A DNA stretch of 64,000 nt from Macrostomum lignano. Its lineage: Eukaryota. The translations under genes and the position numbers were made by a program. The stretch covers positions 682,001-746,000 of the forward strand of contig NIVC01000245.1 of NCBI GenBank assembly GCA_002269645.1, in the 5' to 3' direction. Under the pieces are notes generated by a model. That model was not told the DNA's origin and ran no database searches. It worked only from the letters and a program-made list of their open reading frames with translations. This document shows, piece by piece, positions 14,281 through 61,244 of this stretch (positions within the stretch are counted from its first letter, which is position 1; the number at the start of each line of letters is the position of its first letter).

Positions 14281-15379
14281 TATTTAGATGAAGGATTCTT
14301 TAGATGCGGGTTATTTTGACGGGGGTTCTTTACGAGTAGATGAAGCATTCTATTGATAGGGGGATTATTTAGAGGGGAGATCTATGGATTATTTGGATGG
14401 GGATTCTGTGGATGGGGATTGTGATGTGAATTATTTGGGGGAGGAATCATTGGATATGGATGGATGGGGGATTCTTTAGATAGCAATGAATGGGGAAATT
14501 TTTTTGATAGGGATGGAGGGGGAATTATTTGGATGGGTATTCTTTCGATAGGGGGCTTCTGGGGCTTCTGTAGACGGGGGATTTCTTGAATAGGGGATTC
14601 ATTGGATGGGGAATTCTTCAGATGGGAGGATTCCTTGAATGGGGAATTCTTCGGATCGGTGATTCTATCGATGGGGTTCTTTGCATTGGGGATTTTGCGG
14701 ATGGGGAAATCTGTGGTTGGAGTTTGGACGGAAAGCCCCAACGGGGGTTGGAATTGGCTAGTCCAATATACTAAAAATGGTCTGTCTGTGTCTATCTATC
14801 TATCTATGTGATCGATTAGAGAAAAAATGGCTGGACCGATTTTGTTCGAACTTGCACTGTTCGATCAGAAATTTTCCCGTGACTGTACAGGCTAAGAAAT
14901 TGCTCGATGCTAAAGGCATTAAATATTCGAAAAACATGCTTTTTTGCAAAGGTCAAGCAAACTTTTCGACTTGAAATGCATTGTAAGAATGCTAGAGAAA
15001 AAACTGACTGGTTGAATTCTGATTCTGAAATAGATTGCATCATAACTGAATTGTAACTCCGACTTGAATTGAAAATGCAGTTTGGAAGCGTAGCACCAGA
15101 CTTGATTTAAATTGCGTAACCATGCATATTGTTAACTGATACTGACTGACTGAGAAATTGATTATGTCATAACTGCTTCGTGTGATTTACTCTATGCTTG
15201 GATTTTAAAGTGTTGAATTATATAAGTGCAAAATTTGATGTTATCAAAACGATGAGAGCTAGCCTAGAGGTGAACAAACTGAACTGCTAAATGCAGCAAC
15301 GATGGTTCGAATTTTCATAGAGTATAATTTTTTTAATTAAAGCTTTTCAACGTCAGGAAAACTAAAAGACTTTTTAAAA

Positions 15380-17520
15380 AGAAGCGTCATGTAATGAATC
15401 ATAGAAGCGTCATGTAAACAATCATAGAAGCGTCATGTAAACAATCATAGAAGCGTCATGTAAAAAATCATAGAAGCGTCATTTAAAAATCATAGAAGCG
15501 TCATGTAAACAATCATACAAGCGTCATGTAAACAATCATAGAAGCGTCATGTAAAAAATCATAGAAGCGTCATGTAAACAATCATAGAAGCGTCATGTAT
15601 ACAATCATAGAAGCGTCATGTAAAAAATCATAGAAGCGTCATGTAAAAAATCATAGAAGCGTCATGTAAAAAATCATAGAAGCGTCATGTAAAAAATCAT
15701 AGAAGCGTCATGTAAACAATCATGGAAGCGTCATTTAAAAAATCATAAAAGCGTCATTTAAAAAATCATAGAAGCGTCATGTAATGAATCATAGAAGCGT
15801 CATATAAACAATCATAGAAGCGTCATGTAAACAATCATAGAAGCGTCATGTAAACAATCATAGAAGCGTCATGTAAACAATCATAGAAGCGTCATGTAAA
15901 CAATCATAGAAGCGTCATGTAAACAATCATAGAAGCGTCATGTATACAATCATAGAAGCGCCATGTAAAAAATCAAAGAAGCGTCATGTAAACAATCATA
16001 GAAGCGTCATGAAAACAATCATAGAAGCGCCATGTAAAAAATCATAGAAGCGTCATGTAAACAATCATAGAAGCGTCATGAAAACAATCATAGAAGCGTC
16101 ATGTAAAAAATCGTAGCAGCGTCATGTAAAAAATCATAGAAGCGTCATGTAAAAAGTCATAGAAGCGTCATGTAAAAAATCATAGAAGCGTCATGTAAAC
16201 AATCATGGAAGCGTCATTTAAAAAATCATAAAAGCGTCATTTAAAAAATCATAGAAGCGTCATGTAATGAATCATAGAAGCGTCATATAAACAATCATAG
16301 AAGCGTCATATTAAAATCATAGTAGCGTCATATAAACAATCATAGAAGCGTCATGTAAACAATCATAGAAGCGTCATATAAACAATCATAGAAGCGTCAT
16401 GTAAACAATCATAGAAGCGTCATGTAAACAATCATAGAAGCGTCATGTAAACAATCATAGAAGCGTCATGTATACAATCATAGAAGCGCCATGTAAAAAA
16501 TCATAGAAGCGTCATGTAAACAATCATAGAAGCGTCATGAAAGCAATCATAGAAGCGCCATGTAAAAAATCAAAGAAGCGTCATGTAAACAATCATAGAA
16601 GCGTCATGAAAACAATCATAGAAGCGTCATGTAAAAAATCGTAGCAGCGTCATGTAAAAAATCATTGAAGCGTCATGTAAACAATCATAGAAGCGTCATG
16701 TAAGAAATCATAGAAGCGTCATGTATACAATCATAGAAGCGTCATGTAAAAAATCATAGAAGCGTCATGTAAAAAATCATAGAAGCGTCATGTAAACAAT
16801 CATAGAAGCGTCATGTAAACAATCATAGAAGCGTCATGTAAACAATCATAGAAGCGTCATGTAAAAAATCATAGAAGCGTCATGTAAACAATCATAGAAG
16901 CGTCATGTAAACAATCATAGAAGCGTCATGAAAACAATCATAGAAGCGCCATGTAAAAAATCGTAGAAGCGTTATATAAAAATCATAAAAGCGTCATTTT
17001 TGAAAAATCATAGAAGCGTCATGTAAAAAATTGTAGCAGCGTCATGTAAAAAATCATAGAAGCGTCATGTAAACAATTATAGAAGCGTCATGTAAAAAAT
17101 CATAGAAGCGTCATTTAGAAATTATAGAAGCGTCATGTAAACAATCATAGAAGCGTCATGTAAAAAATCATAGAAGCGTCATGTAAACAATCATAGAAGC
17201 GTCATGTAAACAATCATAGAAGCGTCATTTAAAAATCATAGAAGCGTCATGTAAACAATCATAGAAGCGTCATGTAAACAATCATAGAAGCGTCATGTAA
17301 AAAATCGTAGAAGCGTCATTTAAAAATCATAGAAGCGTCATGTAAACAATCATAGAAGCGTCATGTAAACAATCATAGAAGCGCCATGTAAACAATCATA
17401 GAAGCGTCATGTAAACAATCATAGAAGCGTCATGTAAAAAATCATAGAAGCGTCATTTAAAAATCATAGAAGCGTCATGTAAACAATCATAGAAGCGTCA
17501 TGTAAAAAACTAATGAAAGT
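15380..17520. repeat. 23-bp satellite (AATCATAGAAGCGTCATGTAAA[A/C])n, about 90 copies
   Basis: Continuous tandem array with no unique spacers. Confidence 0.97.
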
Positions 17521-20284: not shown

Positions 20285-21360
20285 TGTAGAGTGTTCTACC
20301 TCCCGTAAGAAGACATAAAAGTGTTAATGTACTACTCACACATTTTATTTAGTAGTAAATTGAAGAGCATGAATAAAGGTATGCTTTGAACTATAAGTAT
20401 ATTCGGACTAACCAATAGGAAGAGAGAGACCTCGAGCATGCTAATTTTAGAAATCACCCAATCACGTGCGACCAACAACTGTCAATTCAAACCCCACCTT
20501 CAAGTCATCATTTTGTTTGCACTCGGGTTGCACCCGGATGAACCAATCAAAGTCTACCAGCTACGGTAACCAATCATGCGCTTTTACAGTAGACTAGTTG
20601 CGCAACTTTCTACCCTGTCATGCTTGACAGCCACCGAATCGTGACCCTTTGACATTTGCGAAGACAGTGATGTACGACCTCGAGAGAGGTCTGAACGCCT
20701 ATAAATACAAGTGGTCCGGAACGGACCCGGAGCCAGAAAATCTCCAAGGGAGAGAAGCTCCGAAGAGGAAGCTCTAGTGAAGCCTTCCTGAAGAAACTCG
20801 CGTCGTGGACGAGTTCTTGCGGTAAGCCTTACTCATTTGCGCCCGTTGGTTGAGACGTCTCGCTCAAGTCTATTGAGACTTGAGTTTATTTGAGTCTGCT
20901 GAGACTCTTGAGTCTGTTTAGACTCCACTGGTTGCAGTCTCCAGAAGGACTGCCCCTGATAGATCTTAGAAGACTATCAGTGGTTTCCGGAGCCATACCT
21001 AGAGTGCATAGAGGCACTACTAGAAGGAGTAGGCTTATATTAAACCGCAGTTTGGCGCAGGGATCCCCATTGTTAATTTGGAAGCTTCCGATTGGTCCGA
21101 ACTACAGATACCGGCCGGCAAGAAGTCAAGAGGACAAAGGAGATAACGGACCAGATCAACTGTTACCAGGTGCCTAAACTTCCTGAAGGACAGGAAAGTT
21201 ACTGATCGCGATACTACGGACGAGGATTATTACGAGAGCTCTCATTTAAGGACTCAAAGGTAATTGAATACCTTCATTTGATTACTGGGTTGCCTAGCTA
21301 CAGAGCTAGAAGTGATTGTTCCTTGATTACAGTTGAGGACTGGTAATAAGGAACACATCA
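20285..21360 (+). repeat. 5' LTR
   Basis: TGTAGA...CATCA, direct repeat of 29915-30990, with TATAAATA near 20700. Confidence 0.97.
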
Positions 21361-21362
21361 AT

Positions 21363-21373
21363 TGGTGATCTCG
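21363..21373 (+). promoter_or_regulatory. Primer binding site, possibly tRNA-Trp
   Basis: TGGTGATCTCG lies 2 nt after the LTR. It resembles the Trp-type TGGTGACCCCG if two G:U pairs are allowed. Confidence 0.45.
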
Positions 21374-22056
21374 CCCTCTCGGCACTACTCAAACTTTTGA
21401 GCAATAGCCTGGCCAAGCTATTGTAAAGTGACGAAAGAGCGACTTAATTAATTTTGCGCGCACGTGTTAGAGGTAACACTTTTCGACACTTTTCGATTTT
21501 TGTACGATTTGAAACTCGAGTAAAAGCTTAGGTATACAGGCTTGAGTACCTGTCAATTTTGAGTAACGTTTGAGCACGCGTGTTAAATTTTTGTTTTTAT
21601 CGAGCTCGAGCAAGAGTAAACCTTAAACAAAACCGAAAACAACGTCCGGTACACTGAAAACAAACCGAAAAATAATCAATACACACTAAAACAAAACCGA
21701 AATTAAAAACACTTGACGAAAGCTAAAACAAACCGAAATTTGATAAAACGTGACAAGGCACGTCACGAAGACAAGAAAGGCCTTTGAAAAAAGCAAGAAG
21801 CAGCTGCACTTCAAGCACTTTAAAGATACACTTTGCGGGACGCCGCATAAGTGCGAAAATCAGCCAGCGAATAAGAGGTCAGAAAAAGCAGCCAAAAGCC
21901 GAATTCCGCTCAAGGTCAGACATAACAAATTGAGGTGTCAAAAGCACCGCAAGACAATCAGTTACAACCGAAGTTTATTTCGAAAGAAACACCACACTGG
22001 AAGATCCATTACAAATCGACCCAGACCTAGAGCTACCGTTCTATCCCATCAACAAC

Positions 22057-23722
22057 ATGGCGCGGCGCAATCCAACGGTGCACAGAGATATCAAAGAGAC
22101 AGTTGGCACCTTTTCTATGGAAAAAGACTTTAACACCTTTGTTGATCATTTTGACCTGGTATGTAGGGAATACAACCTACAAAATCCAGAAAAAGCGCAA
22201 CTGTTGCCACCACTCCTCCAAGGCACTGCACGAGAGATTTATGGTAAACTAGATGCGGCAACACAGCAAAACTACCCAGCATTAATCATTCAACTGCGCG
22301 CGCATTTCAACCGCTGTGGCACAAACAGATCAGTGCTACTGCACAAGTTGCATAACAGAAGGATGCAGCCAACCGAATCCTTCCTGACCTTTGTGGACGA
22401 CATCCGTCAGATAATTAAGGCACTGCATCAGCCAACACTGCCAGCTGCAGACCAACCACCTCTGGGTGCGGCAGAATTAGCCGCTAGAGAGCGACAGCGA
22501 TTGATGGATCGCGAACAAAATCTGATTCTGCACGTAATAAACAATGCACAGCCGTCACTCCGAGATAGACTTCTACGCGAAAACATTGAAACCGAGGAAG
22601 ACCTTTTACGGTGCGGAATGCAGTGGGAAGCAAGCGCTCCACTAATGACAACCGGCAACACAGAAGTGCAGAAACTGACACAGCAACTAAACAAACTGAT
22701 GCAACATCAAACAGCCGTTATCGCCGAACAAAAAAGACGAAATGAACGAGCCCAAGCCAGATGCTATTACTGTGGACGAGAAGGACACTACCAAATACAT
22801 TGTCCTCATCGGTCAACAAGAAATGACATGCAGCGACAGCCATTCAACAGAAGGAAGCCGCAAAAACCATGGCAACAACATCAAAATTGGCAGCAGCAAA
22901 ACACGAAACGCTTCGGAAACAATGGCTACAGACCGCGAAACACCAGATACATGCCCAAGCAACCAACGCAAGCGATGCAACGATATGCAAACGCCATCAC
23001 GTACACACCGGAAAGCGAACAGCAAGAGCAGCAAGTCTTCACGATAGACGACTTAGAAATGGACTTCACTATCAATGAAATCGACTGGCTCGATGCGGAG
23101 AGCAGCGAAAAGACAAAAAACATCAGCATGGTCGAAATGAAAGAAACTAACATTGACAGCGAAGAAGAAAAGACAGAAGTGAGCACAGAAAAAACATTGT
23201 CAAGCGACATCAGTGAAAGAAAAGAAGAAACAAACAAAGGCAACGACAAAGAACTGGCAACGAAGGATGACAACGAAAGAAGCAACGACGGAAATACAGA
23301 GATGGAAGAAGAACAGCAAGAAGAAAGCAGCGATCACGATTATGAGATGCAGAATGACGCTGATGACAACCAAGCCGCCGACAAAGAACATGAAGACGGA
23401 AGGCACAAAGGAATGGAAGAAAGAAATCTAAGCTCCGACAGCGATCAATGCTACGAGATCCGCTATAAACGAAATGGTGAAGCCTACATCAAACGGTCGA
23501 CTACAAGGCCGAAGTGAGGTACCGCAGACAATGGAGTGACACAACTACAACATCGGAAGAAAGCAAGGAAGAAAATGATGAAGACGACAAGCAGCGGAAC
23601 GAATCGGATGCCTTGCGCTCGGAAACGCCAATGGAACAAGAGGAAGAATACGATGCGGACGTAGAAGATAACGAATGGCAGCCGCAGCCAATGCCAGCAA
23701 AGACAACGGCAACGTTCAGAAA
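22057..23722 (+). CDS. gag: Gag (capsid, CCHC zinc knuckle, long acidic linker); -1 shift near 23512
   Basis: Gypsy capsid-like N-terminus (FNTFVDHFDLVC..KAQLLPPLLQGTAREIY) and CYYCGREGHYQIHC knuckle. The E/D-rich tail continues in ORF 23514-23753. Confidence 0.9.
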
Positions 23723-25729
23723 ATGGCGATCTGGATATTCTGGATCATCATAATACTACTGACGGCAGTAGTCACCAAAGCAACAGCAATGGAAAACCAA
23801 TGATATGTCCAACGGATGCGCATATCCAACCGATGATCTACAAGATACCAACCGACATCAAATGCAGCTACTTCAAGACAAATCAGACGAAGCCAAAGAA
23901 GATCACAATTGATCTCTACAAAGCTAACATCAAGAAGCATCGACAACTCGGAATAGTGTGCTTTAGAGACAAGCACCTAGTGGAAAAAGTTTGGCGAGGA
24001 CAATGGAACAGAATTCGATTTTGGCAACACGAACTACATGTGTCGCACGCTGAATGTCTACAATGGAACCAAACACTGTTCTCAAAGGATGGTCAGCTAG
24101 AACCGGATGAGAAAGTGGGGGAGGCACAACTTTACCGAACGAAAACTCAGCAAACGGACGATATGTACACTTTTCGGAAGCATGGACTAACTACATGACA
24201 CGAAACAGTTACCTAATCAGGAATATTCCATTCTACCACAATCCTTTTGAAAAAATGGAGTCGCTACAACTGCAATTAAGTGACTGCCGATACAGCAAAG
24301 GATGGTGTCCAACGCCGATACTGCGGAATGAGGAACTATACAGCTTACCGTTGAGTCCAACATATCATCAAGACTATCGATGGCAAATAATACGCAGAGG
24401 CGACTCACGATATGAAGAACCATCTAAGTCACGACAATACTTCTTCGCGTGGGAAGTTGAGCCGGAAATTGACTGCAAGCTTCAAAAGTATCACACAGTT
24501 GAAGGAGGTCTACTGTCAAACACGTTTTTGGCAAAGTCAGGAGACTTGGCACTGACGTTTCAAAAGAAACCAGTCGAGCAAAAACTGAAATGCAAGGATA
24601 CAGACAAGACACTATTCATCTCGGAACAAGAGATACCAGTCTACGTAAAAGAAGACGACAAACAAACCTTTCTGGCGATCATCAACGGAACGTATCAACA
24701 GCAGGAACAACAGAACAGACGACGACGAGACATCGAACGTCCCAAACTGGTGTCAAACCGACTACTGTCAGCAAAGATAACGGCTTTGGATCACAATCTA
24801 CACAACCAGTTAAACCACTTGCATCGAACACTGGTCCAGCTAACTTGCAAAATGCACGCAATCAACTTAAATTATGCCAGACAAAACTACTATGTCAACC
24901 CTACGATGACTTTTCGTAAAATCACCGGAATGACGAACGTTTTGGCAGTTCCAATATACGAGCATCTGTTGATATACAAGTGCACGCCGATACAGCACTT
25001 TAACATCTTGCCGTCGAACACGTCAACAACCTGCTACGACAAGCCAAGGATTGAAGCGTTCTACGAAGGAAAACGAATTCAGGATTCTTGGACACGGTAC
25101 ACAACATCATAGTTGGCACCGCAATACCGAGACCCTGCACCACGGCAGCAAACTACTATCAACTGGACAATGCACTACACGTCATCAAAACAACTGGAAC
25201 GACAGCAAACATCACAGAACCGGAAGTAATCGTCGACGAAAACTACGACATGGAGGATTTGAAAATCCGATTCAACAGAACGAAGTATACGCCATTCGCC
25301 GATATCCAACTTGACGAGATAACACCAGGATGGACGATCAACGACTTCTTGCAAGCGTTCATCACCCAACGCAAGATGATTCACCAGCTGTTCACAAGAA
25401 AGGACAAAGGAACCGGGACAGGAAGATTTCCCGTCCTTGTTTCAATGGACAGCGCCATCAAATCATTTTGGACAAACAGCTTCTGGGAGCTGCTCAATGG
25501 AAGAGGCAGTCTCTATCAAGGATTCATCTTCTACGGTGCTTGCATTGTGTGGATTGTCACGGCAATCTTCATCATTTCGTCGATCGTACGGTGCTTCAGT
25601 CAAACTTGTCCAAGAGCTAAGAAGACAGTTAATGCCATAATGCAAAGAACGACAACGGAAGGCGACAACAGTTTAGAACTAACAGAAACTGCACATCGTG
25701 AGGTTCAAGGGCAACCGACACTAGCAACG
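23723..25729 (+). CDS. env: Env-like class III fusion glycoprotein embedded between gag and protease; -1 shifts near 23792, 24185 and 25082
   Basis: Signal-like MAIWIFWIIIILLTAVVTKATA (23723-23788), RRRR furin site (24717-24728), six N-X-S/T sequons, gB-like Cys/helix pattern, and TM FIFYGACIVWIVTAIFIISSIV (25523-25588). Confidence 0.85.
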
Positions 25730-28700
25730 CGGCTATATCCATCGATTCCGACAACACCAACGGCACCAAGAATACAACCACCCAACTATCAAGCAGAACA
25801 GCAAGACCCAAAATGGCCAGAGAACTACGTATGTACTCTACACGCCGAAATTGGCAAAGCCATGGCTCAAGTGGTAATCAACAATCTACCATGTCGAGCG
25901 CTACTCGACTCCGGCAGCTCCATCACAGTTATATCAAAACAACTGTGCAACAAGCTACGACTTGCTCTACGGCCAGCAACAATCGCAGTTGCAGGAGCAG
26001 GAGGACATTCGCTAAACATTCTGGGAAAAGCCGACATTGATTTAAGAATCGCTAATAAACACTTGACAGTTCCAACGTACGTCATCGACAGACTCCCAAA
26101 CCAGGACGTTATTGTTGGCATCGACACGTTCAAGCAGCTTCGACTACCATTGACCTTCGACTTCAATAAGCAAACGTTCAAGATCGACTCGGTAGAACAA
26201 CCATTGATCAACCAGATCCGAGTACTACCAAAAGTAACATTGCAACAAGATGTCATCATCCAACCGGAGAGCGCCTGCTGGATAAAGGCAAAGGCAACTA
26301 ACGCAACGGAGGAAGCAATGATATTCGACCCAAACAGAAGAGTCACGGCTAAACACCAAATTATGATGCCTACGGCACTAGTACTGGTTGCAAAAGATAA
26401 ACAGCTGCCAGTACAAATATTCAACCCGAACACAGAAACGGTTCATCTACGACAAGGAATGTGCATCGGTCATCTCAACACCCAAGCATCGGTTATGCTG
26501 ATTGAGCAAGCGACTCCACGACTAACAGAGGAAGAATTTCAAAAGAAGATCAATTTGGATGACAGCCCGATTACGGAACAGCAAAAGAGGAAAGTTCGAC
26601 AGCTGTTGTGGAAGTACAACGACGCTTTCTGCCACCATGACTACGACATCGGACGAGCCAAGGACATCAAACAGGAAATCAAACTTCTGCCGCACACGGA
26701 ACCAATTCAGTGCAAACCGTACCCGATCGCCAAGCATCTGCAACAGCACTTCGATGAGATTATCGACAAAATGCTGAAACACGGCATCATCAGCAAAGCC
26801 ATTTCAGCATACTCATCACCATGTCTCTTGGTACAAAAGAAGGAGACTAACGAAAGACGACTCGTATGTGACTTCAGACTGCTGAACAAGTACATACCGA
26901 CGGATCAGCAAAGCCTACCGAAGATCTCCGAACTACTAGCAAAGCTCAACACGGCAAAATTGTTCACAGTGTTCGACCTACGTCATGGATTTTGGCAAAT
27001 TGAAATCGAGAAAGAGTCACGACAGTACACGGCTTTCAAAACCTACAATGGACAAGTATACGAGTACAATCGATCGCCGATGGGACTCAGCAACAGCCCA
27101 GCAACGATGAGCCGACTAACAGCATACATGCTTGCAGGATGCACGAACCTGTTGCACTATGTTGACGACATCTTGGCCTACGGAGAAGACTTCGAACGAC
27201 TCTATGAAGCGACGGAGAAGGCCCTCGCGCTTATCAACGACAAGGTCTTAAGCTACAACCAACTAAATGCAAATTCTTCCGAGACAACGTGCGTTACCTG
27301 GGACATCAGGTGACAGCCAAAGGAATTTCACCGGACCCAGACAACGTGGATAAAGTGAAAAAGTTTCCTACGCCAACTAGCAAAACGAAGGTCCAATCAT
27401 TTCTTGGACTTGCGCAATACTTCCGAAAGTTCTTACCCAACTTCGCGAAGACAGCAAAGCCGCTGTACGACCTGCTCAAGTTCGACAAATGGAAGCAGGA
27501 GAATTGGACACAAAAGCAACAAGAAAGTTTTGACGAAATCAAACGACAGCTGACATCAGACGCACTGCTACAGCATCCGGACTTCGACAAACCCTTCATC
27601 ATCGAGACAGACGCCTCAGGAACGGGACTCGGAGCAGTCCTACTACAGGAAACTGAAGACAAAAAGGAACGACCTATAGCCTACGTCAGTCGAGCACTTA
27701 AACCGAATGAGACAAAATGGTCAGCTACGGAACGAGAACTACTAGGAGTTCTGTTCGCCCTACGACAGTTTCACTACTACATCTATGGATCTCCATTACA
27801 GACGATAGTACGCACAGATCATGCACCGCTGACCTACGTCGTAACTACAAAAGGACAAACAAACAACCGACTCATCAGGATGACACTCAAGATCCAGGAC
27901 TACAACTACAAGCTCGTCTACAAACCAGGAATTACTAACAAGGCCGCGGACGCCCTGTCAAGAGCCTACGAAGTCAACGCCATTCATCCAATCCCTAACA
28001 TCAAGGAATTGGTGGATGAGACTGAACACGACAACTTCTACATAGCAGTTAAAAACAACGACAAGGACATCAAGCTCAGCCCCGTGGAACGAAAATTCCT
28101 GCGCAAGCAGCGACAACATTTAACAATCAACAAGTCACGACTCTACTGGATGAGTGACAACAAACCTAAAATCTACATGCCATATTCGTTTAGGCAGGCA
28201 ATTCTCAACGAGCTGCACGACAACCCACTCGCTGGACACCTGTCGGCAGCCAAAACCATTGCAAGAGTGGAGCAATACTACTTTTGGCCAAGCATGCATG
28301 GCGACATCAAGCAGTATTGCAACAACTGCCACTCATGCGCAGCATCAAAGACAGGACGACGACAAAAACCACAGCTACAATCGATACCAAAGTCAACAAC
28401 TATGGACTGTCTCAGCATCGACATCACCGGACCGCTGCCACCGAGCTGTCTCCATGGCATAGCCTACACCTACATCCTAACAGCCTTGGACATTTTCTCA
28501 AAGTTTGCTATTGCCATACCAATACCGGACATCACAGCTCAGACAGTGGCAATGGGTTTCTTCAACGACATCATCTGCAAGTACGGTACGCCAAAGAACC
28601 TCACATCGGACAATGGATCGCAGTTTACGTCTCAACTCTTTCAGCAAGTGGTGAAGATCCTCAACATCACGCAGATCTACACATCGACCTACAATCCGAA

Positions 28701-29370
28701 GGCGAACATGGTTGAAAGGTTTCACCGCAACCTACACGAGATGATTACACACTTCGCGCATCAACAACCGGACGACTGGATCATCTATCTGCAAGCAGTA
28801 ACAATGGCCTACAACAGCGCTATTCATCGATCAACGGACAATACGCCATTCTTTCTAATGTTTGGGCGAGACTTCCAGCCGCCAAACCTATTGGCACAGC
28901 AACTACTACCATCGCAATATGTGGAAGTCCCGACGTCCATTCAAAAGTTCGTCACGCAACTACACCTCGCATGGAAAGTAGCCAAGCACAACATCGACAA
29001 TCAGGTGGCTCTAACCACCGGCACCGACACGAGATCGACAACTCTGACAGCCGGCGACATCGTCTACCTGCACTATCCGCCGCAACAGACGCACAAACAC
29101 GCACAGAAGTACAAAGGACCATATCGAGTGGTCCAACTAACGTCATCGACAACGGCACGCCTGGCCAATGTGCAAGATCCTCATCAGCACCAATTCTACG
29201 TGCACATTCATCGACTAAAAAAGATCAACACTGACACGACAACGTTTTTACCGTCACTAGACAACGCTGATCGCACGCGTTCGGCGAACCGCCACATCGC
29301 AACAAAACACGAGGAGACACAAACATCAACCGAGAATCAGCAACATGGCTACAATCTGCGACCTCGTTAA
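25730..29370 (+). CDS. pol: Pol: aspartic protease, RT, RNase H, integrase; -1 shift near 27243
   Basis: LLDSGSS, RLVCDFRLLN, FDLRHGFWQI, YVDD, IETDASG, HHCC (LHDNPLAGH..CNNCHSC), D-D-E (IDITG, SDNGSQF, VERFH) and KYKGPY. Confidence 0.95.
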
Positions 29371-29481
29371 GTTGCGAAAACAACCCGTGTAGAGACCGGG
29401 TCAGAATAGCTCTACAGCTTCGCAAGCTTGTCGTAAGAGGCGACTAATCTGAGCGACTTCAAACTTCAAGCGACGACGACA

Positions 29482-29775
29482 ATGGGCAACGCACTGTCCA
29501 AACAGGCGCCCCAACTACAGCAACTCTATGAATGCCCAATATGTTTAACTGATGACTTGGCTGTCAAGCCACCAATTATTTGTGAAAACAGACATCGCAT
29601 ATGCGGACAATGTTTAAGCGACTCACATTATATTCAGCTCTGGCAGAATTGCCCGATAGGTAGAAGAGTTTGCGGCAGTGCGCCTATTGTTAGTCTTGGC
29701 GCACATGTCAATACTGTAACCAAAAACATTTCATTTGCATGCGTATACTTACCTTTAAATAACTTTTATAACTAA
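29482..29775 (+). CDS. Small accessory RING-finger protein with N-myristoylation motif, 97 aa
   Basis: MGNALSK start in good Kozak context (ACAATGG). CPIC-x11-C-x3-H-x2-C-x2-C-x12-CPIG(R): the last ligand is G (GGT, one base from TGT), with another C four residues later. Confidence 0.7.
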   Translation: MGNALSKQAPQLQQLYECPICLTDDLAVKPPIICENRHRICGQCLSDSHYIQLWQNCPIGRRVCGSAPIVSLGAHVNTVTKNISFACVYLPLNNFYN

Positions 29776-29914
29776 CGCTCTTAACTACCCATTACTAAAT
29801 ACCTGTAACACTTGTGACAAAAGATTTTTATAAAGACATGCTCGTACTTTTTATGCGTTTCAATCCTCTATAATTTAAAACTCGGGACGAGTTTTTTGTA
29901 AACATGGGAGATTT

Positions 29915-30990
29915 TGTAGAGTGTTCTACCTCCCGTAAGAAGACATAAAAGTGTTAATGTACTACTCACACATTTTATTTAGTAGTAAATTGAAGAGCAT
30001 GAATAAAGGTATGCTTTGAACTATAAGTATATTCGGACTAACCAATAGGAAGAGAGAGACCTCGAGCATGCTAATTTTAGAAATCACCCAATCACGTGCG
30101 ACCAACAACTGTCAATTCAAACCCCACCTTCAAGTCATCATTTTGTTTGCACTCGGGTTGCACCCGGATGAACCAATCAAAGTCTACCAGCTACGGTAAC
30201 CAATCATGCGCTTTTACAGTAGACTAGTTGCGCAACTTTCTACCCTGTCATGCTTGACAGCCACCGAATCGTGACCCTTTGACATTTGCGAAGACAGTGA
30301 TGTACGACCTCGAGAGAGGTCTGAACGCCTATAAATACAAGTGGTCCGGAACGGACCCGGAGCCAGAAAATCTCCAAGGGAGAGAAGCTCCGAAGAGGAA
30401 GCTCTAGTGAAGCCTTCCTGAAGAAACTCGCGTCGTGGACGAGTTCTTGCGGTAGGCCTTACTCATTTGCGCCCGTTGGTTGAGACGTCTCGCTCAAGTC
30501 TATTGAGACTTGAGTTTATTTGAGTCTGCTGAGACTCTTGAGTCTGTTTAGACTCCACTGGTTGCAGTCTCCAGAAGGACTGCCCCTGATAGATCTTAGA
30601 AGACTATCAGTGGTTTCCGGAGCCATACCTAGAGTGCATAGAGGCACTACTAGAAGGAGTAGGCTTATATTAAACCGCAGTTTGGCGCAGGGATCCCCAT
30701 TGTTAATTTGGAAGCTTCCGATTGGTCCGAACTACAGATACCGGCCGGCAAGAAGTCAAGAGGACAAAGGAGATAACGGACCAGATCAACTGTTACCAGG
30801 TGCCTAAACTTCCTGAAGGACAGGAAAGTTACTGATCGCGATACTACGGACGAGGATTATTACGAGAGCTCTCATTTAAGGACTCAAAGGTAATTGAATA
30901 CCTTCATTTGATTACTGGGTTGCCTAGCTACAGAGCTAGAAGTGATTGTTCCTTGATTACAGTTGAGGACTGGTAATAAGGAACACATCA
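29915..30990 (+). repeat. 3' LTR
   Basis: Direct repeat of the 5' LTR with one difference noticed (A20825 vs G30455). Preceded by a short purine tract GGGAGA. Confidence 0.97.
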
Positions 30991-31837
30991 TTAGCTGACG
31001 AAAGCCCAGCTCTTCCACCTTGGCGCGAGTGCGAGCAGCGGCATGCGGACGCGCGTTGTCCCAAAGGATGAACGGCTTCTGACGCATGATTCGGCGCTTG
31101 GATAGAAAGGCAGCACGCAGTTGCTCGAGCTGGTTAATCACATAGTCGGCATTGATTGTCTGGCCCTGCGGCAGGTAGTCGACGAGTAGCATGCCTCGCG
31201 CATTGAACCACACTGCACATGATGTTCTGGGTCCAGGCCGACTTCATGGCCTTTGTGTGTGGGTGCCGTCCCTTTGGCCCCCACTGCATCGACTGCTGCT
31301 TTGTCAGTGGATTAAACATTGCAGCGGCGTCTCGTCCATTGTGATTACAAGCTCCTTGAACTTCTCATCACCAAGCTCGTTCCAGACAGCCCAGTTGTCT
31401 GCCGAACATCGCACCCGTGCTTTTTTGTGTTCTTCTGTCAGCTCTCGTGGCACCCACTTAGCGCAAATCTTCGACCAGCCGTGGCGTTATAGAATGCGAC
31501 TCACAGACAAGCAGTGAACGCCGCACACACTCTCCACTTCACGCACACATGCAGATGGGTTTGCCTCCAAATATTGGAGCACGGCAGCCGCATTGTTGTC
31601 ACCTGTGCTGGAACGCGGACGGCCAGAGCGAGCAGCATCAGCGACGCTTGTTTGACCATCAGTAGCAAGTCAATGGTGGGCAAACACCTGTGTGCGACCC
31701 AACGCATAATCACCGAAAGAAGTGCAAACTTCGTTAAAAGTCTGCGTTGGTGTCTTACCCATGTGCTGACATGCCATAATAAAGCAACGTTGACTTTCTT
31801 TCGAATCAAAATCTGAGTGATTTTTTGGTCGGCTCAT
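30991..31837 (-). pseudogene. mariner transposase, N-terminal part (frameshifted)
   Basis: MSRPK..QRCFI..GKTPTQTF helix-turn-helix region, RSGRP, WVPREL, TMDET and WDNARPH. D to D spacing across the insertion is 34 residues. Confidence 0.9.
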
Positions 31838-33272: not shown

Positions 33273-35025
33273 CTAGCTTTGCAACCAAAGTTCATGTCTC
33301 AAAGTTGAGTTTCGTCCCTTCATTAACTTTCGTTGATCGATAGCCGAAGTCGCAGCCGAGCTGCAGGCGATCAGACAGTCGTGAAGGAGTTCAACAGCTT
33401 CCAGCATGGTCAGCAGCGAGCAGCCAAGGTACAGACCGAGTAATCCACCTGTGTCAGCAATCAGGTCGATAAAACTATACGACTTCTCAATGAGAACTGC
33501 TGAGCCGAGACTCTTGCCGGTGTACACTCGAATTCGCATCATTTGGTCTTGCAAGTAATTCGAGCCGACAACTATATTGCGGGTGGTCAAGTTATTCAGC
33601 AAGCTATTGGTTATGTTCAAGACTTCATCATAGCCAGGAAAGTGCGCAGCGGGATTTTCTAGCCTTTTCTCCTGAACGCGATACTGAAACCCGGCTAGAA
33701 GGTCGCGCTGAAAAGCGGAAAAGACTCGTGGCCAGTTGCTAAACGAGTAGGCGTACTTGAAACGGTCCGTCTGACAAGGCCGAAGTTTGGCGCAGTATTG
33801 ATGAATGGCATTCTGATAATTCCAATATAAAGCTGGGTTGTTTTCTTTGAAAAACTGTTCAGCCGACGCCTGACCTGTGAGAACGCGGCTGGCATTCGAG
33901 CAGCTTCGAGCGTGGATAAACTTCCGATCGCGAGGTAACAGGTGACTCACACAGCCGCTTTGCTGCATCATGAGCTGGTTACTTCGTTCGGCCCGACAAA
34001 GGTACTCGCTAAATGCATAGGCCGTCTCGGTGTGATCGTACGGACTGATGATGCGACTGGGCTCAGGGCTACTCGAGCACTGCATTCCTTTGCCAGAATG
34101 AGCCTCTCATCTCGAGGTCGATTCGATAGTCTTTTCCAGCGCTGAGCTGAATCATGGACTCGGAGTCCGGATAGTGACCAGGTCGAACGAAATAAAGGTT
34201 TACACCAGATGCAGTCTCGGGTTTAATGCCATTCTCAAAGTCCCATGAAAGAAAGCTCAGCTTTGATGTGTTTATTGTTGCAATCGGCAGTAGTGACGAT
34301 TTTTTTGGGAATTCAAAAAATGCACCATCCAAAAATAGTGTCATCTCTAAATAGCTGCCCTGATTGCTCAGCTCTGGTCGCTGCGATGGCGTGGGCACCA
34401 GGCGAATGCAGTTAAGGTCCCTAAAGCTGTGAAACGGTATTTCCCCAACTGGTGCTTTTGGCGAGCCGTTCAAGATCAGCATGAAAAGAAACTGCTTCAT
34501 ATGATGACCCAGTTTGTCGCTTATAAGGCGAAATGGCATTGTGGATAGAAGAATGCTTGCCAACCTGGCTGCATCAAAAAAATTTTTAGGTGACCCACCA
34601 AAGGCTAAAGTAAGACTTTTGACATAGCTGTTTATTTCGGCTGTGCTGTTGGGATCCAGGATGTACGGATAACTCCCTGACATGATGGCATTGTTGCAGA
34701 TGACCAGATCGGGGAACTCGAACTCCACCGAGTTCTGCTGCAGCGTGGTGGTCTCTGGCTGCTCGTTGTAGGTTTTGATGAAGCTCTGCACCTGTGTGAC
34801 AAAGCCGGTGAGGCAGAGCGCGAAGCCGACAAGCCAGATGACCTTGACGTAGATCGGACGGGACCCCACGAGTCTTCCGAGGCCGTGAGCCGTGGTGTCG
34901 CTCAGCCATGAGTGCACAGGGTGCGATAGAATCTCCTTGATTCCTTTCCGTTGACAGCCTGGATTCGTTGATTCGACAACTTGCTGTTCTTCTGTCATCG
35001 TGAGTCTGGAATGCTGATGTTCCAA
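33273..35025 (-). CDS. Intronless DEG/ENaC (ASIC-like) channel, copy 1; apparent frameshift near 34075-34110
   Basis: Pre-TM1 TTAHG motif, TM1 VIWLVGFALCLTGF, FPDLVICN, Cys thumb, and TM2 DTGGLLGLYLGCSLLTMLE (GxS filter). Two 1-nt homopolymer deletions relative to copy 2 explain the break. Confidence 0.88.
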
Positions 35026-37107: not shown

Positions 37108-38911
37108 CTAAACTTCTAGGTCAGTCACACTCACATTCGCATCGTCGTCTTGCTGATGACGCTCGGCCGCAGCTCTGTCCGTCGTGTCACTCTCCATCTC
37201 ATCGGACTGTCTCCCACTGTTAGCAAAATTTCTTCCATTGAGGGCCGTTGATGCGGTCGAGAAGCAGGCGAGCAGGCAGTCGTGAAGGAGTTCAACAGCT
37301 TCCAGCATGGTCAGCAGCGAGCAGCCAAGGTACAGACCGAGTAATCCACCTGTGTCAGCAATCAGGTTGATCAAATCGTAGGCCTTTTCAATCTGAACCG
37401 CTGAACCAAAGCTTTTCACAGTGTGCAGCCGTATACGCATCAGCTGGTCATGCATGTAACCCGAACCGATAACTATGTTGTGCGTGGTCAGGTTATTTAG
37501 CATTGAGGTAGCTATATTGCTCAAGTCATCGTAACCAGGAAATTTACACCAGGAAAAGTGCTCCTTTTTAGCTGAACTAACGTCTGAAAGTGTTCAATAA
37601 TTTCGTGCTGAAATGACGATAGAATGCGGGGCCAGTCGCTGAAAGAGTAGGTGTACTTGAAAATGTCAGTCTGACAGGGTCTTCGCTGGGTGCAGAACTG
37701 CTGAATCAACTTCTGGTCCAGATTCGTACTAAAATAAGCCCCTCTTTCTATTTCACTAAAAAACTGACCGACTGACACCTGACCACTGAAAACTCGACTG
37801 GCGTTCATGCAGTTGCTGGTGTTGATAAACTTCCGATCGCGAGGTAACAGGTGACTCACACAGCCGCTTTGCTGCATCAGGAGCTGGTTACTTCGTTCAG
37901 CCCGACAAAGGTACTCGCTGAATGCATAGGCCGTCTCGGTGTTATCGAACGGACTGATGATGTGACTGGGCTCAGGGCTACTCGAGCACTGCATTCCTTT
38001 GCCCAGAATGAGCCTCTCAATCTCGAGGTCGATTCGATAGTCTTTTCCAGCGCTGAGCTGAATCATAGACTCGGAGTCCGGATAGTGACCAGGTCGAACG
38101 AAGTAAACATTGACTCCGGCTCCAGAAACTAAGTTAATGCCATTCTGAAAATCCCAGGCGAGAAAGTTTATTCCAGTTGAGTTTGCGATCGGAATGGGGA
38201 GCAGTGAGGAGTTCTTGGGGAAGTCAAAGAATGTCCCATCCAAGAAGAGACCGACTTCCAGGTAACTGCCCTCAGTGCTCAGGATTTTTCTCTGGTCTGT
38301 AGTGGGCTCAATGCGAATGCAGTTTAGCTCCGATGGACTGTAAAACTTTTTTGCTGGAACGATGTCCCTGTGAAGACCGTTAAGAATTGTCAAGAAGAGA
38401 AACTGCAACAGCTGATGACCCATGGCCTGACTAACCAGTCGGTAAGGCATGGTTGCCAGAAGGGTCTTGGCTAGAATGCCAGTATACAATTGATTTGGTG
38501 GCACGCCCATCATCCCGATGAGCTGAGTGACATAGCTGTTTATTTCGGCTGTGTTGTTCGGGTCTAGAATGTACGGATAACTGCCCGACATGATGGCATT
38601 GTTGCAGATGACCAGATCGGGGAACTCGAACTCCACCGAGTTCTGCTGCAGCGTGGTGGTCTCTGGCTGCTCGTTGAAGGTTTTGATGAAGCTCTGCACC
38701 TGTGTAACAAAGCCGGTAAGGCAGAGCGCGAAGCCGACAAGCCAGATGACCTTGACGTAGATCGGACGGGACCCCACAAGTCTTCCGAGGCCGTGAGCCG
38801 TGGTGTCGCTCAGCCATGAGTGCACAGGCTGCGCCAGAAGTACTCGGAGTTGTTCGCTGGTCTGTTTTGATTCTTTTCGGTGAAATTTTCATCAGAATTT
38901 TCCTGCTTCAT
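37108..38911 (-). CDS. Intronless DEG/ENaC channel, copy 2; apparent frameshifts near 37540 and 38840
   Basis: Same motifs as copy 1. Adding one T in a T-run restores NFPGYDD (copy 1 has HFPGYDE). The start at 38911 (MKQENSDE) is inferred. Confidence 0.85.
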
Positions 38912-45600: not shown

Positions 45601-45950
45601 CAACAAACGGCTGTACAGAAGGACTCGAAGTGTTCAGCCGATAAAACCTGTTGCTTTTGGCTTCAAATTTGGTAGAATTTGAGCTGCCGCCGCAGGAGAG
45701 GAGGGTGCCGGAGTCCAATAGGCCTTGACAGACAGACTGAGCTCGAGAGTGACTGTCCGTCTGGCTGACTGATGCTGACGCTTCAGACGATGTCAGTTGA
45801 AGGTATTCAATAGCAGCAGTGTGCAGCTGCTTGCCTGAACGTTTCAGATCAGTTTGAATTGAGGGAAACAGGCAGCCAAGGAGCTGCTTCCACTGGCGAG
45901 TGGCTCTGAACTGCTGCTGGCTTCCTGTGGATGAAGGACGACGGTTTTAA
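42624..45950 (-). CDS. Unidentified multi-exon protein-coding gene (approximate exons 45510-45950, 44480-44880, 43490-44225, 42624-43020)
   Basis: Long GC-richer open stretches with Q/S/E-rich and helical segments, separated by AT-rich or repeat-filled introns, ending FRVHHPDLFRKHFAVD*. No family recognised. Confidence 0.5.
43153..43420 (+). mobile_element. tRNA-derived SINE, copy 2 (intronic, antisense to the host gene)
   Basis: Homologous to 12820-13194 over the head (CCCAGGCTCGATT..AAGTGCAGTCACATTAATTTGG) and core (GCCTGCTCAGGGGAGTCGG). Confidence 0.7.
44985..45480. repeat. 20-bp minisatellite (ATGAGTTTGGCGCCCCTCTA)n
   Basis: About 25 tandem units. Confidence 0.95.
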
Positions 45951-45984
45951 TAACTGCAATATGTATCGGCTTCCCCAGTGTCAG

Positions 45985-46885
45985 CTGTTAGTGTTAGATA
46001 GGAATGTGTCAGCTGTTAGATAGCAATGTGTCAGCTGTTAGATAGCAATGTGTCAGCTGTTAGATAGGAATGTGTCAGCTGTTAGTGTTAGATAGGAATG
46101 TGTCAGCTGTTAGAAAGGAATGTGTCAGCTGTTAGATAGCAATGTGTCAGCTGTTAGATAGGAATGTGTCAGCTGTTAGATAGGAATGTGTCAGCTGTTA
46201 GATAGCAATGTGTCAGCTGTTAGATAGCAATGTGTCAGCTGTTAGATAGCAATGTGTCAGCTGTTACATAGCAATGTGTCAGCTGTTAGATAGCAATGTG
46301 TCAGCTGTTAGATATCAATGTGTCAGCTGTTAGATAGGAATTTGTCAGCTGTTAGATAGCAATGTGTCAGCTGTTAGATAGGAATGTGTCAGCTGTTAGA
46401 TAGGAATGTGTCAGTTGTTAGATAGCAATGTGTCAGCTGTTAGATAGCAATGTGTCAGCTGTTAGATAGCAATGTGTCAGCTGTTAGAAAGCAATGTGTC
46501 AGCTGTTACATAGCAATGTGTCAGCTGTTAGATAGCAATGTGTCAGCTGTTAGATATCAATGTGTCAGCTGTTAGATAGGAATTTGTCAGCTGTTAGATA
46601 GCAATGTGTCAGCTGTTAGATAGGAATGTGTCAGCTGTTAGATAGGAATGTGTCAGTTGTTAGATAGCAATGTGTCAGCTGTTAGATAGCAATGTGTCAG
46701 CTGTTAGATAGCAATGTGTCAGCTGTTAGAAAGCAATGTGTCAGCTGTTACATAGCAATGTGTCAGCTGTTAGATAGCAATGTGTCAGCTGTTAGATATC
46801 AATGTGTCAGCTGTTAGATAGGAATTTGTCAGCTGTTAGATAGCAATGCGCAGCTGTTAGATAGGAATGTGTCAGTTGTTAGGCA
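45985..46885. repeat. 22-bp minisatellite (TGTGTCAGCTGTTAGATAGCAA)n
   Basis: About 40 tandem units with higher-order variant blocks. Confidence 0.95.
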
Positions 46886-47569
46886 GCAAAACCAATTTAC
46901 ACAGGTATTTATTCTCATAAAATAATGTTACCTGTTCGACCTGTTACATGTTAGATGTTGAGATAATTGTAAACTGACAGAAATCCCAATGAAAGGAGAA
47001 AATTCACTCACGAAGTCCTGAACTGGGTGCCTCGGAGGAGGCATTGTAAGAGGCTTCAAAATCAGTCTGTCCGATTGTGAACATTTTTTTAAATATTTTG
47101 AATGTGAAATTATTTAATGTGAAATTAGACAGGGCGAGGCTTTTATAACGACTGGGCATGGGTCAGGGAGGGTTGTACAATTTATCATGCAACAAAAGCG
47201 ATAGTTTTTTAATTGGATGCACGATGGACTCGCCTCATAAACCATTTGGTCAGTTGTTCTATCGATGTACATATGGATATGTACAATTGAGGTGTGTACA
47301 GCATGATCTACATTGTAACGAAGATGGTTTTAAAAGCTAAGTAGTTGTGCAAGTGACTTGTAACTTTCTTCTATTGTACCTTTTTGATGTATTCTAATTG
47401 ATTAACTCTAATTAAAAGGAAGTAGTTATATTTAATTAGAAAAAGTAATTACCTTTAATTAAAGAGAAGTAATTACCATCAGTTAAAGAAAAGTAATTAC
47501 CTTTAATGAGAGAGGAGTAATTACGGTAAATTAGAGAAGAGAATTAATTAATTAAAAAAGCGAGGAGGA

Positions 47570-50519: not shown

Positions 50520-51560
50520 CTCTCTTGACTCTCTCACACTTTTCCTGTCACTCTCTTCCCGGTCCTCTTTTCCCGTCACCGTCCTTATCGTCACTCTCTT
50601 TCCGTCACTCTCTTCCCGTCACTCTCTTCCCGGTCCTCTTTTCCCGTCACCGTCCTTGTCGTCACTCCCTTTCCGTCACTCTCTTCCCGTCACTCTTTTC
50701 CCGTCACTCTCTTCCCGTCACTCTTTTCCCGTCGCACTCTTTCCGTCACACTCTTCCCGTGCCTCTCTTCCCGTCACCGTCCTTATCGTCACTCTCTTTC
50801 CGTCACTCTCTTCCCGTCACTCTCTTCCCGGTCCTCTTTTCCCGTCACCGTCCTTGTCGTCACTCCCTTTCCGTCACTCTCTTCCCGTCACTCTTTTCCC
50901 GTCACTCTCTTCCCGTCACTCTTTTCCCGTCGCACTCTTTCCGTCACACTCTTCCCGTGCCTCTCTTCCCGTCACTCTCTTCCCGTCACTCTCTTCCCGT
51001 CACTCTCTTCCCGTCACTCTCTTCCCGTCACTCTCTTCCCGTCACTCTCTTCCTGTCACTCTCTTCCCGTCACTCTCTTCCCGTCACTCTCTTCCCGTCA
51101 CTCTCTTCCCGTCACTCTCTTCCCGTCACTCTCTTCCCGGTCCTCTTTTCCCGTCACCGTCCTTGTCGTCACTCTCTTCCCGTCACTCTCTTCCTGTCAC
51201 TCTCTTCCCGTCACTCTCTTCCCGTCACTCTCTTCCCGTCACTCTCTTCCCGTCACTCTCTTCCCGTCACTCTCTTCCCGGTCCTCTTTTCCCGTCACCG
51301 TCCTTGTCGTCACTCTCTTCCCGTCACTCTCTTCCCTTCACTCTTTTCCCGTCACTCTCTTCCCGTCACTCTTTACCCATCACTCTCTTCCCGTCACTCT
51401 CTTCCCGTCACACTCTTCCCGTCACTCTCTTCCCGTCACTCTCTTCCCTTCACACTCTTTCCTTCACACTCTTCCCGTCACTTTACCTGTCACTATCTTC
51501 CTGGCACTCTCTTCCTTTCACGCATTACCTGTCACTCTCATTCACTCTCATCCTGTCCCT
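50520..51560. repeat. 14-bp pyrimidine-rich minisatellite (CACTCTCTTCCCGT)n
   Basis: Tandem units. They account for the 14-aa periodic spurious ORFs. Confidence 0.95.
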
Positions 51561-51561
51561 C

Positions 51562-52605
51562 TCACTCTCTCCAGCTGTCATCCTGCCTCTGAAAATTGGA
51601 GCCCTCAGGTTCGGGCAGGAACAGGGCCAATATTTGATCATTTTTCATTAGCAGCTCGGCTTGAATAATTTTACCCTTGCGAGTCAACTGAAGGCGTCGC
51701 ACAAACGAATGCACTTTGCTCAAGTAGCTGCAGTCGGTTCTCATATGGTTGAAGTACTTGAACAAGCAGTTGGATTGGAAGTCTCTACCATAGACAGCCG
51801 TGAGGAACTGGTCCGGCTGGTTGGGCGCCGGCAGTAAGTACGGGCCGAACGGACGAACTCGCAAAGGATAAACGTAGTCAATGGGAAACTTCCGCGGAGC
51901 TTCCTGTCTGTCATAAACGCGTCCTTTCACTCTGCCGAAAAAGAAGTCCACAATTGTTTTGCACTGTTTTCTCGCGCTGAGATTTTGGCCAACTAATCCG
52001 CATAGGATGCCCAACTGCCAATGCTGGTTTGTCAGTTCGGTGTCTATGAAGTTGAACTGCTCCGATTTGGACAGATTTACCAAGAATTGACGAACTAATG
52101 GCTTCTGATTATACTGAATCATAAAATCGATGTCGGCGTCCCAGGGGATGAAGCCGAGGTGTCGCCAGGATCCCAGCAAGCTGCCGCCAGCTAGAAACAG
52201 TTCGAGGCCCATCTGGCTGAAGTTCGAGTGCAACTGATGCACAATGCGATAGATATGACTCTGCTCATCGGTGCTCAACAGACTCAACCGGTGTAGTTCC
52301 ATGGCTGTAGGATTTTTCACTGCATCACTGCCGATTAGTTTTTGCAGACAGGCCGCACCGACTGACTTCGGTTTGCTCAGCCTAACATAGATCGGCGCTG
52401 ACAGATGGAGAACAGAGTCTTCTATACGAAATTTCAATAGCAAATCACTGAGACACAATGCGCTCGAGGCCAAAACGCTATGGGAGTCTTGAGATTGTGT
52501 CCTTGAGCTGCTTCTCAGAGTGAAAACTATCGAGAAGGCAAAACAGACGGCAGCCAATAAGAAATACGAATTAGCCCGACGTCTGTTTGGCAGTTTACTC
52601 AGCAT
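51562..52605 (-). CDS. Intronless LicD/fukutin-family nucleotidyltransferase-fold protein (type II membrane)
   Basis: N-terminal anchor YFLLAAVCFAFSIVFTL, LFLAGGSLLGSWRHLGFIPWDADIDF signature, TIVDFFF, and YPL..RPFGPY.LPAPNQP..FL..VYG. Confidence 0.85.
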   Translation of the reverse strand: MLSKLPNRRRANSYFLLAAVCFAFSIVFTLRSSSRTQSQDSHSVLASSALCLSDLLLKFRIEDSVLHLSAPIYVRLSKPKSVGAACLQKLIGSDAVKNPTAMELHRLSLLSTDEQSHIYRIVHQLHSNFSQMGLELFLAGGSLLGSWRHLGFIPWDADIDFMIQYNQKPLVRQFLVNLSKSEQFNFIDTELTNQHWQLGILCGLVGQNLSARKQCKTIVDFFFGRVKGRVYDRQEAPRKFPIDYVYPLRVRPFGPYLLPAPNQPDQFLTAVYGRDFQSNCLFKYFNHMRTDCSYLSKVHSFVRRLQLTRKGKIIQAELLMKNDQILALFLPEPEGSNFQRQDDSWRE

Positions 52606-52984
52606 TCTGCGGTTTCTTGCAAATCTACTTTGGTGTCATTTTTTAATCAATCCACTCGCAAATGTTTCTGGCATCGCAATGTCACTAATAGTCTTACAGT
52701 GAAAATGACAAAGGGAAGGCCTTTTCAGGGCGCAGTCACTTCCATGGTCTTTCCAGACAGTTGCTGTTTTGATGCGGTTGACGGGATCTGCTCGAGCAAT
52801 GGGAAAAATGTGTTGCTACAGATGTAGACTGCGTTGAGAAGGCTGCCTTGCTTCCCAATACAAAATTTGTTTTTATAGAAACAAAACAATCGCCTTTTAT
52901 CATCGTATATTCGTTTCATGGTTCATTTCTGTTTGTCTTTACCGTCTCGTGATCTAAGATTTGAAGATATTTTGTCTTGAACAA

Positions 52985-55423: not shown

Positions 55424-55812
<389 letters not shown>

Positions 55813-56317: not shown

Positions 56318-61244
<4,927 letters not shown>

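Follow-up and report, generated by a model that had tools for sequence, protein, structure and literature searches.

Tandem double-RING accessory genes of a Macrostomum lignano errantivirus are under selection and partly lost from young subfamilies

Comparison of copies across the genome of the flatworm Macrostomum lignano reveals a selected and tandemly expanded family of double-RING genes in an errantivirus, which has been partly lost from young subfamilies of the element. The window, that is, the whole 64,000-nucleotide stretch of DNA analysed here, holds a truncated first member of this family at 29482..29775 on the forward strand. Our best reading of the whole, to which we assign a probability of roughly 60%, is that the genes are a spliced, dispensable cassette through which the element encodes E3 ligases that would be aimed at host proteins. 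The double-RING family is apparently hitherto undescribed.

Results

A recent errantivirus carries the accessory gene

The window ORF belongs to a 10.7-kb LTR element (20285-30990) that is inserted in a mariner remnant and flanked by a 4-nucleotide target-site duplication, TTAG. The 5' LTR (20285..21360, forward strand, 1,076 nucleotides, TG...CA ends, TATA box at 20700) is 99.6% identical to the 3' LTR (29915..30990, forward strand), which was placed by LTR comparison and its ends. The mariner transposase remnant that served as insertion target lies at 30991..31243 on the reverse strand (Pfam Transposase_1, E 2.7e-9) and resumes left of 20281, its left half being judged by eye. The primer-binding site (21363..21374, forward strand) is the same 12-mer as that of Mlig_errantivirus_2 in supplementary file 1 of PMC13524379. 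It is followed on the same strand by gag (21997..23517, from the ORF and Pfam), with a CCHC knuckle and an acidic spacer, by env (23665..25588) and by pol (25901..29370), in which Pfam identifies protease, RT, RNase H and integrase in the Ty3/gypsy order, with one frameshift near 27.2-27.3 kb. The protease-RT-RNase H-integrase order, the LTRs, the primer-binding site and the target-site duplication are those of an errantivirus, and the element is a recent Ty3/gypsy errantivirus of the known GAG-ENV-POL type. This layout is described from nematode, bryozoan and flatworm errantiviruses in the available text of PMC13524379, and an in-frame env between gag and pol is likewise reported for planarian Burro elements in that of PMC6431247.

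The original prediction had overlooked the env gene that separates gag from pol. Its product appears to be a class III, gB-like Env, as judged by position, hydrophobic segments, a signal peptide-like segment, a furin site and a transmembrane helix (25511-25588). It is frameshifted in the window copy, and Pfam Monjiviricetes_fusion gave E 0.0027 for the window and E 9.8e-6 for an unbroken relative, both below the cut-off. The whole Gag-Env-Pol series forms a single ORF of about 2,500 amino acids in 3 of 20 related regions, the window copy having several frameshifts, and in these single-ORF copies Gag is followed by a signal-like hydrophobic segment and the protease is preceded by a transmembrane helix, with a furin site also present. 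The stretch from the Env helix to the protease contains a late-domain-like cluster of YPxI, PTAP and PPxY motifs (25733..25789, forward strand). In the same interval PTAP was present in 6/7 ORFs scanned and YPxI in 7/7, and the late domains thus seem, from these motifs, to be part of the Env tail and not of Gag.

The first ATG of gag (22057) gives Ala2, and Gag indeed has no Gly2, as had been predicted. The polyprotein, and with it Gag, may in fact begin at an in-frame CTG at 21997. This codon has a good start context, lies 20 codons ahead of the first Gag ATG (21997-22056) and is invariant in 8/8 copies examined, in which other leucine codons vary; two distant copies have a stop 3 codons upstream of it.

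Several further observations concern the element family and its surroundings. One related locus, L038, is 93-100% identical to window 21934-29775 in Gag, Env and Pol and 66% identical in the first RING ORF over the matched part, and LTR types differ among copies of the window type, so modules recombine between lineages. A multicopy deletion derivative (L045 2279-5374, reverse strand; L046 4577-7672, forward strand) has Gag and half of Env fused in frame to the last 75 integrase residues, giving 1,031 amino acids, and retains both RING genes. Contigs C87, C1130, C2121, C272, C1405 and C3033 of the genome assembly (G000) hold dense nested or fragmented copies from several lineages, and these clusters could be piRNA-cluster-like graveyards. 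Elsewhere in the window we observed a two-ORF non-LTR retrotransposon that encodes endonuclease, RT and RNase H (3247-6951, forward strand), pieces of amiloride-sensitive (DEG/ENaC) channel genes with long open frames (33273-34998 and 37521-38591, reverse strand), and many tandem-repeat arrays with units of 8-23 nucleotides (15300-17000, 45950-46900, 50550-55800 and 57000-60900).

Unbroken relatives form a double-RING family under purifying selection

Unbroken relatives in the same genome encode 198-222 amino acids, comprising RING1, RING2 six residues further on, and a helical domain. One, two or three tandem paralogues are found per element, between pol and the 3' LTR. We aligned 14 hand-picked unbroken ORFs (20-86% identity to the first), which share 14 of 16 ligand positions without exception and the remaining two in 13/14 ORFs. 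Pro58, Arg61 and, in the helical domain, Trp147-Pro148 are also invariant. Eight zinc ligands in cross-brace spacing are thus found in the unbroken relatives but not in the window copy. Values of dN/dS were 0.10-0.27 for the first paralogue (9 of 36 pairs estimable, the others being saturated) and 0.08-0.23 for the second (10/10 pairs estimable), compared with 0.04-0.11 for pol (7/10 pairs estimable). The accessory family is under purifying selection, and pairwise dN/dS gave no sign of positive selection in the accessory ORFs.

An AlphaFold model of an unbroken protein (pLDDT 84, pTM 0.76) has an all-helical C-terminal domain, and in the first paralogue this domain is basic. No match in Pfam, PDB or Atlas was obtained for RING2 plus the helical domain, and the best VIA Z of the helical domain, taken as part of the whole model, was 6.3-6.7, which is the background level. 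A profile search of 1.84 billion proteins returned 4 full-length relatives at E<=1e-30. The matches of two family proteins, P0004 and P0006, to this genome reach only about 42% and 30%, so the family also exists outside this assembly, where it is known as proteins. Word-index protein searches with P0002, A1 and P0005 did not find relatives, and scans of metagenome contigs with P0005 and of viral contigs with P0002 gave no match. As for a possible host-gene origin, every copy examined stood in an element context or was a fragment.

RING1 has the marks of a ubiquitin ligase

By the residue rules for E2 contacts of RINGs, RING1 has the surface expected of an E2-binding domain, with Ile or Val in loop 1 in 13/14 ORFs and, in loop 2, Pro in 14/14 and Arg in 14/14. 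The linchpin arginine of a RING stands directly after its last cysteine. A linchpin arginine is described as central to RING-catalysed ubiquitin transfer in the accessible part of PMC12326332. RING1 ends in CPxCR in all 14 aligned ORFs and in 32 of 37 distinct near-full ORFs, and none of 30 parsed RING2 domains has an arginine after the last cysteine. Profile matches were led by SIAH1 (E 4e-5) and also included TRIM21, TRIM5, RING1B and BRCA1; Sina_RING was matched by 11/14 ORFs at E<=0.1, and the Pfam RING scores for P0002 were under the cut-offs. Foldseek with the model of the unbroken protein gave no match at E<=0.001 and returned RINGs without significant E-values, and viral RING proteins came closest in Atlas and BFVD. 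RING1 lacks a tryptophan in its central helix, where many E3s have one, and RINGs can also act as plain scaffolds. Overall, the RING1 proline and arginine and the E3 profile matches lend support to the E3-ligase half of the original prediction, and ligase activity of the accessory family is, on this signature, quite likely.

Such ligases could instead act on the element's own proteins, ubiquitinating the Env tail or Gag for ESCRT budding or removing excess Pol. The same E3 marks in RING1 would serve this role, and the single 2,500-residue Gag-Env-Pol ORF of 3/20 regions would yield Gag, Env and Pol one to one and with them an excess of Pol. Late-domain motifs are present in the polyprotein, and anchoring by myristate would put the ligase at the same membrane. 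However, recent movement is seen in copies that lack a functional cassette, which may have been helped in trans, and up to three paralogues near 20-40% identity are hard to square with one fixed substrate. We consider a role on the element's own proteins unlikely.

Candidate splice sites and a conserved structure precede the accessory ORFs

A spliced, LTR-derived mRNA had been proposed for the accessory ORF, which is plausible. The LTR has a candidate major splice donor, GCG/GTAAG (20822..20827, forward strand; 8 of 12 sources scanned), 116-128 nucleotides behind the TATA box, and the exon upstream of it has no ATG. A near-identical public gene model from Macrostomum lignano, P0003, breaks exactly at the homologous donor site and joins the LTR donor precisely to a YAG acceptor before a downstream ORF; P0003 may be an ab initio model. 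Of 17 downstream ORFs, 11 had a YAG within 3 nucleotides of their start, compared with 44 of 501 background ATGs, although the 17 contexts are related and not independent. Next to the ATG of the first paralogue, YAG was found in 0/9 ORFs. For the first paralogue, the conserved candidate acceptor ends at 29417. The site that had been proposed there, CTCTACAG, does end at 29417 and has 29482 as its next ATG, but it lacks a pyrimidine tract. Taken together, the conserved donor, the acceptors before downstream ORFs and P0003 point to spliced accessory mRNAs. Contigs of four sequencing runs, 3 of them presumed RNA and one of unknown kind, had a DNA-like profile and were hence uninformative; the 15 joints listed, out of 45, did not include one from the LTR to 29418. 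Read-through from pol into the accessory ORF was rejected, since the spacer stays in frame in only 4 of the 10 copies whose pol stop could be located, and the window carries an in-frame stop.

The spacer after the pol stop is conserved across lineages whose silent sites are saturated. We predict in it a conserved non-coding element (29384..29444, forward strand) consisting of an H-type pseudoknot (29384-29416) and a short hairpin (29430-29444). The pseudoknot draws support from 69 sites with 16 distinct sequences and two independent double changes in stem 2, although these fall into only three sequence types. Its last strand holds the candidate acceptor, with the AG at 29416-29417. In both main sequence types a competing hairpin that masks the acceptor can also be drawn, and the modelled pair of structures suggests a possible switch over the acceptor. 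The folding energy of the spacer was not unusual in 12 sequences (z -0.99 to +0.53) with a program that ignores pseudoknots. Rfam assigned the conserved spacer to no family, the only match being 19 nucleotides of mir-7964 (E 0.41).

These features would also fit a Rev- or CERV-like regulator without ligase activity, whose zinc fingers bind element RNA, perhaps the pseudoknot, and control splicing or export. The conserved structured element lies just upstream of the accessory ORF, the helical domain of the first paralogue is basic, and there is a precedent in the Ty3/gypsy element Cer1, where the spliced CERV protein needs its cysteine loop for RNA export (PMC10309623, available text). Yet CERV as described there is not a RING finger, the proline and arginine are kept only in RING1, and a myristoyl signal is ill-suited to a nuclear job. 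Such a regulator has, in our estimate, only a slim chance of being the right explanation.

The myristoylation motif is confined to one clade

The predicted Gly2 turned out not to be conserved among accessory ORFs. It is present in only 7 of 37 distinct ORFs, a count that includes a few mis-started ORFs and leaves out one further Gly2 copy with its first cysteine lost. It is restricted to first-position ORFs of near lineages and absent from P0004-P0007. Gly2, Asn3, Ser6 and a basic residue 7 are nevertheless kept across these lineages at dS near 1-2, and the codons of Asn3 and Ser6 have changed silently. The motif thus looks selected inside its clade, and the myristoylation signal is probably a real, local gain.

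Does this signal make the protein a matrix protein similar to arenavirus Z, which would give Gag its missing membrane targeting? According to the available text of PMC3509680, Z conserves a myristoylation site and C-terminal late domains. The good myristoylation motif kept at dS near 1-2 and a Gag that begins with Ala2 agree with such a role. However, Gly2 is rare and it is the polyprotein that holds the late-domain motifs, none of the 14 unbroken ORFs containing PTAP or PPxY, and the accessory protein is twice as long as Z with two RINGs and a helical domain, which makes the role unlikely. In addition, the polyprotein, in which Gag is in frame with a signal anchor and with the transmembrane helix of Env, has membrane anchors of its own, and mobility has outlasted the loss of the gene. 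We give a Z-like matrix or budding function very little credence.

The window ORF is a decayed copy

The original prediction described the window ORF as an accessory myristoylated mini-RING protein. The 97-residue ORF does begin with MGNALSK, in a strong Kozak context (A at -3, G at +4), and does lie between pol, whose stop is at 29370, and the 3' LTR (29915-30990). The pattern MGxxx[ST][KR] arose in 2 of 1,489 shuffled ORFs and a RING-like cysteine pattern in 0 of 1,000 shuffles of the element, so neither is expected by chance. Of the SINA-like RING, the cysteine pattern is there, but Pfam RING and Sina_RING gave E 0.03-0.04, below the cut-off, and the last zinc ligand is missing. Only residues 1 to about 62 are homologous to the family, holding the myristoylation motif and RING1 without its last ligand, and the remainder is an off-frame tail.

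A length of about 100 amino acids is not the native form, as the window ORF is a decayed copy of a gene that encodes 198-222 amino acids when unbroken. A genome search with the window ORF gave 127 matches, with 150 of 175 candidates scored, and we compared the 21 closest copies, which we call window-type. Residue 60 is not Cys in 21/21 of these, so CPIG is no misreading of CPIC. Cys44 is also lost in 15/21 and Cys57 in 2/21. A stop at 70 amino acids is present in 20/21 copies, and the 97-residue length is private to the window: residues ~63-97 stem from a one-base indel near 29667 that is absent from all sisters and, being confined to a single copy, may be an assembly error. The size likeness of the 97-residue ORF to arenavirus Z is an accident. 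Comparison with the longer relatives places a RING2 remnant, in another frame and with an in-frame stop inside, at 29668..29742 (forward strand), and homology stops at 29742 owing to a deletion. The distance from the ATG to the LTR is 430-434 nucleotides in window-type copies compared with 1,602-1,614 in the longest relatives, which leaves the former short of about 1.2 kb.

The first 62 codons of the window ORF have dN/dS of 0.17-0.30 against five relatives. Of the predicted conservation across copies, selection on the gene holds up, but the window-type ORF is broken and zinc ligands are lost. Window-type copies are young, with LTR pairs 99.2-100% alike in 20/20 (one pair over only 173 nucleotides), and the 70-residue ORF is present in 20/20 sisters, of which 2/20 have an unbroken polyprotein. 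These young copies with a broken ORF moved recently, so the accessory gene is not needed in cis. From these comparisons the window copy is very likely a remnant, the pseudogenised first gene of an accessory cassette. That the short protein has instead acquired a function of its own, such as that of a myristoylated decoy, is highly improbable: the 70-residue form does occur in 20 young copies with its start motif intact, but further ligand losses are spreading in the subfamily (Cys44 in 15/21, Cys57 in 2/21) and the 97-residue version is single-copy and possibly an assembly error.

Discussion

In the explanation we favor, a host-directed ligase cassette, each paralogue would be made from its own mRNA by splicing the single LTR donor to the acceptor before each ORF, as in complex retroviruses. 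RING1 would probably recruit host E2~ubiquitin, and RING2 together with the helical domain would bind the substrate. In the weakest step, the diverged paralogues would then differ in their targets, which would most likely be host proteins acting to restrict the element. In one clade the first paralogue would have gained a myristoylation signal that places it at a membrane. The cassette would be dispensable in cis, and hence deletion derivatives such as the window's subfamily could spread without it. A more elaborate version, which we regard as speculative, is a complex-retrovirus-style arsenal in which alternatively spliced double-RING E3s with a new substrate fold destroy host restriction factors such as piRNA or antiviral proteins, with a Nef-like myristoyl anchor and with the pseudoknot switch balancing expression against genomic RNA.

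To our knowledge, direct counter-defence proteins have rarely been shown to be encoded by transposons. If the double-RING proteins are ligases, their substrates would name the host restriction factors that the transposon removes. The family sits in an active, envelope-carrying retrotransposon whose host genus has a laboratory model, and natural copies offer ready comparisons, as they have anywhere from zero to three working paralogues and may or may not have Gly2. If our reading is true, Ty3/gypsy elements evolved on their own the accessory-gene layout seen in complex retroviruses.

Additional ORFs in LTR elements have precedents in Burro, CERV and bdelloid elements (PMC5408684, as far as its available text goes). 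We found no description of a RING accessory cassette behind pol in the literature, including the accessible portions of PMC13524379, PMC12801592 and PMC6338049; such ORFs may be mentioned in Sacco et al. 2022 on nematode elements, in an earlier classification of the host's LTR elements or in the supplements of PMC12801592. The closest known element we compared, Mlig_errantivirus_2, shares with the window element the Ty3/gypsy pol order, an env between gag and pol and the 12-nucleotide primer-binding site, and is similar in size (about 10.6 kb compared with 10.7 kb), whereas its LTR is 863 rather than 1,076 nucleotides long; the errantiviruses in the same source have the GAG-ENV-POL layout with an HSV/gB-type Env, as appears to hold here (PMC13524379, available text). 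The giant gypsy Burro elements also have a flatworm host and an in-frame env between gag and pol, and carry extra domains linked to ubiquitination and apoptosis that were proposed to interfere with host systems. In contrast to the RING family, these AIR1, MATH, BIR, SUMO-like and BCL2 domains are mostly inside a 4,900-residue polyprotein, and the available text describes no tandem array of separate double-RING genes behind pol (PMC6431247). CERV of the C. elegans element Cer1 is similarly an accessory cysteine-rich protein from a spliced Ty3/gypsy mRNA, splicing being predicted for the RING family; unlike the latter, CERV has 517 amino acids, exons shared with gag, a C4-type loop, a function in nuclear RNA export and, in the text available, no RING (PMC10309623).

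The likeness to arenavirus Z, a myristoylation motif followed by a RING (PMC3509680, available text), holds in one clade only. Z has 90-99 amino acids and a single RING, in contrast to the 198-222 amino acids, two RINGs, helical domain and absent late domains of the accessory proteins, and it was not among the matches listed in the family, profile and fold searches. The accessory proteins resemble SINA/SIAH, other C3HC4 RING E3s and viral RING ligases such as ICP0 and giant-virus RINGs in their C-x3-H spacing and CPxCR end. The likeness to SINA/SIAH is confined to RING1, however, and they have neither the SINA zinc fingers nor a TRAF domain. Finally, the family resembles the accessory genes of complex retroviruses in its location near the 3' LTR and its predicted splicing. 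Accessory proteins of complex retroviruses recruit host ligases or adaptors and are not known to carry a RING themselves. One of them is lentivirus Nef, which is spliced, encoded near the 3' LTR, myristoylated and dispensable in cis.
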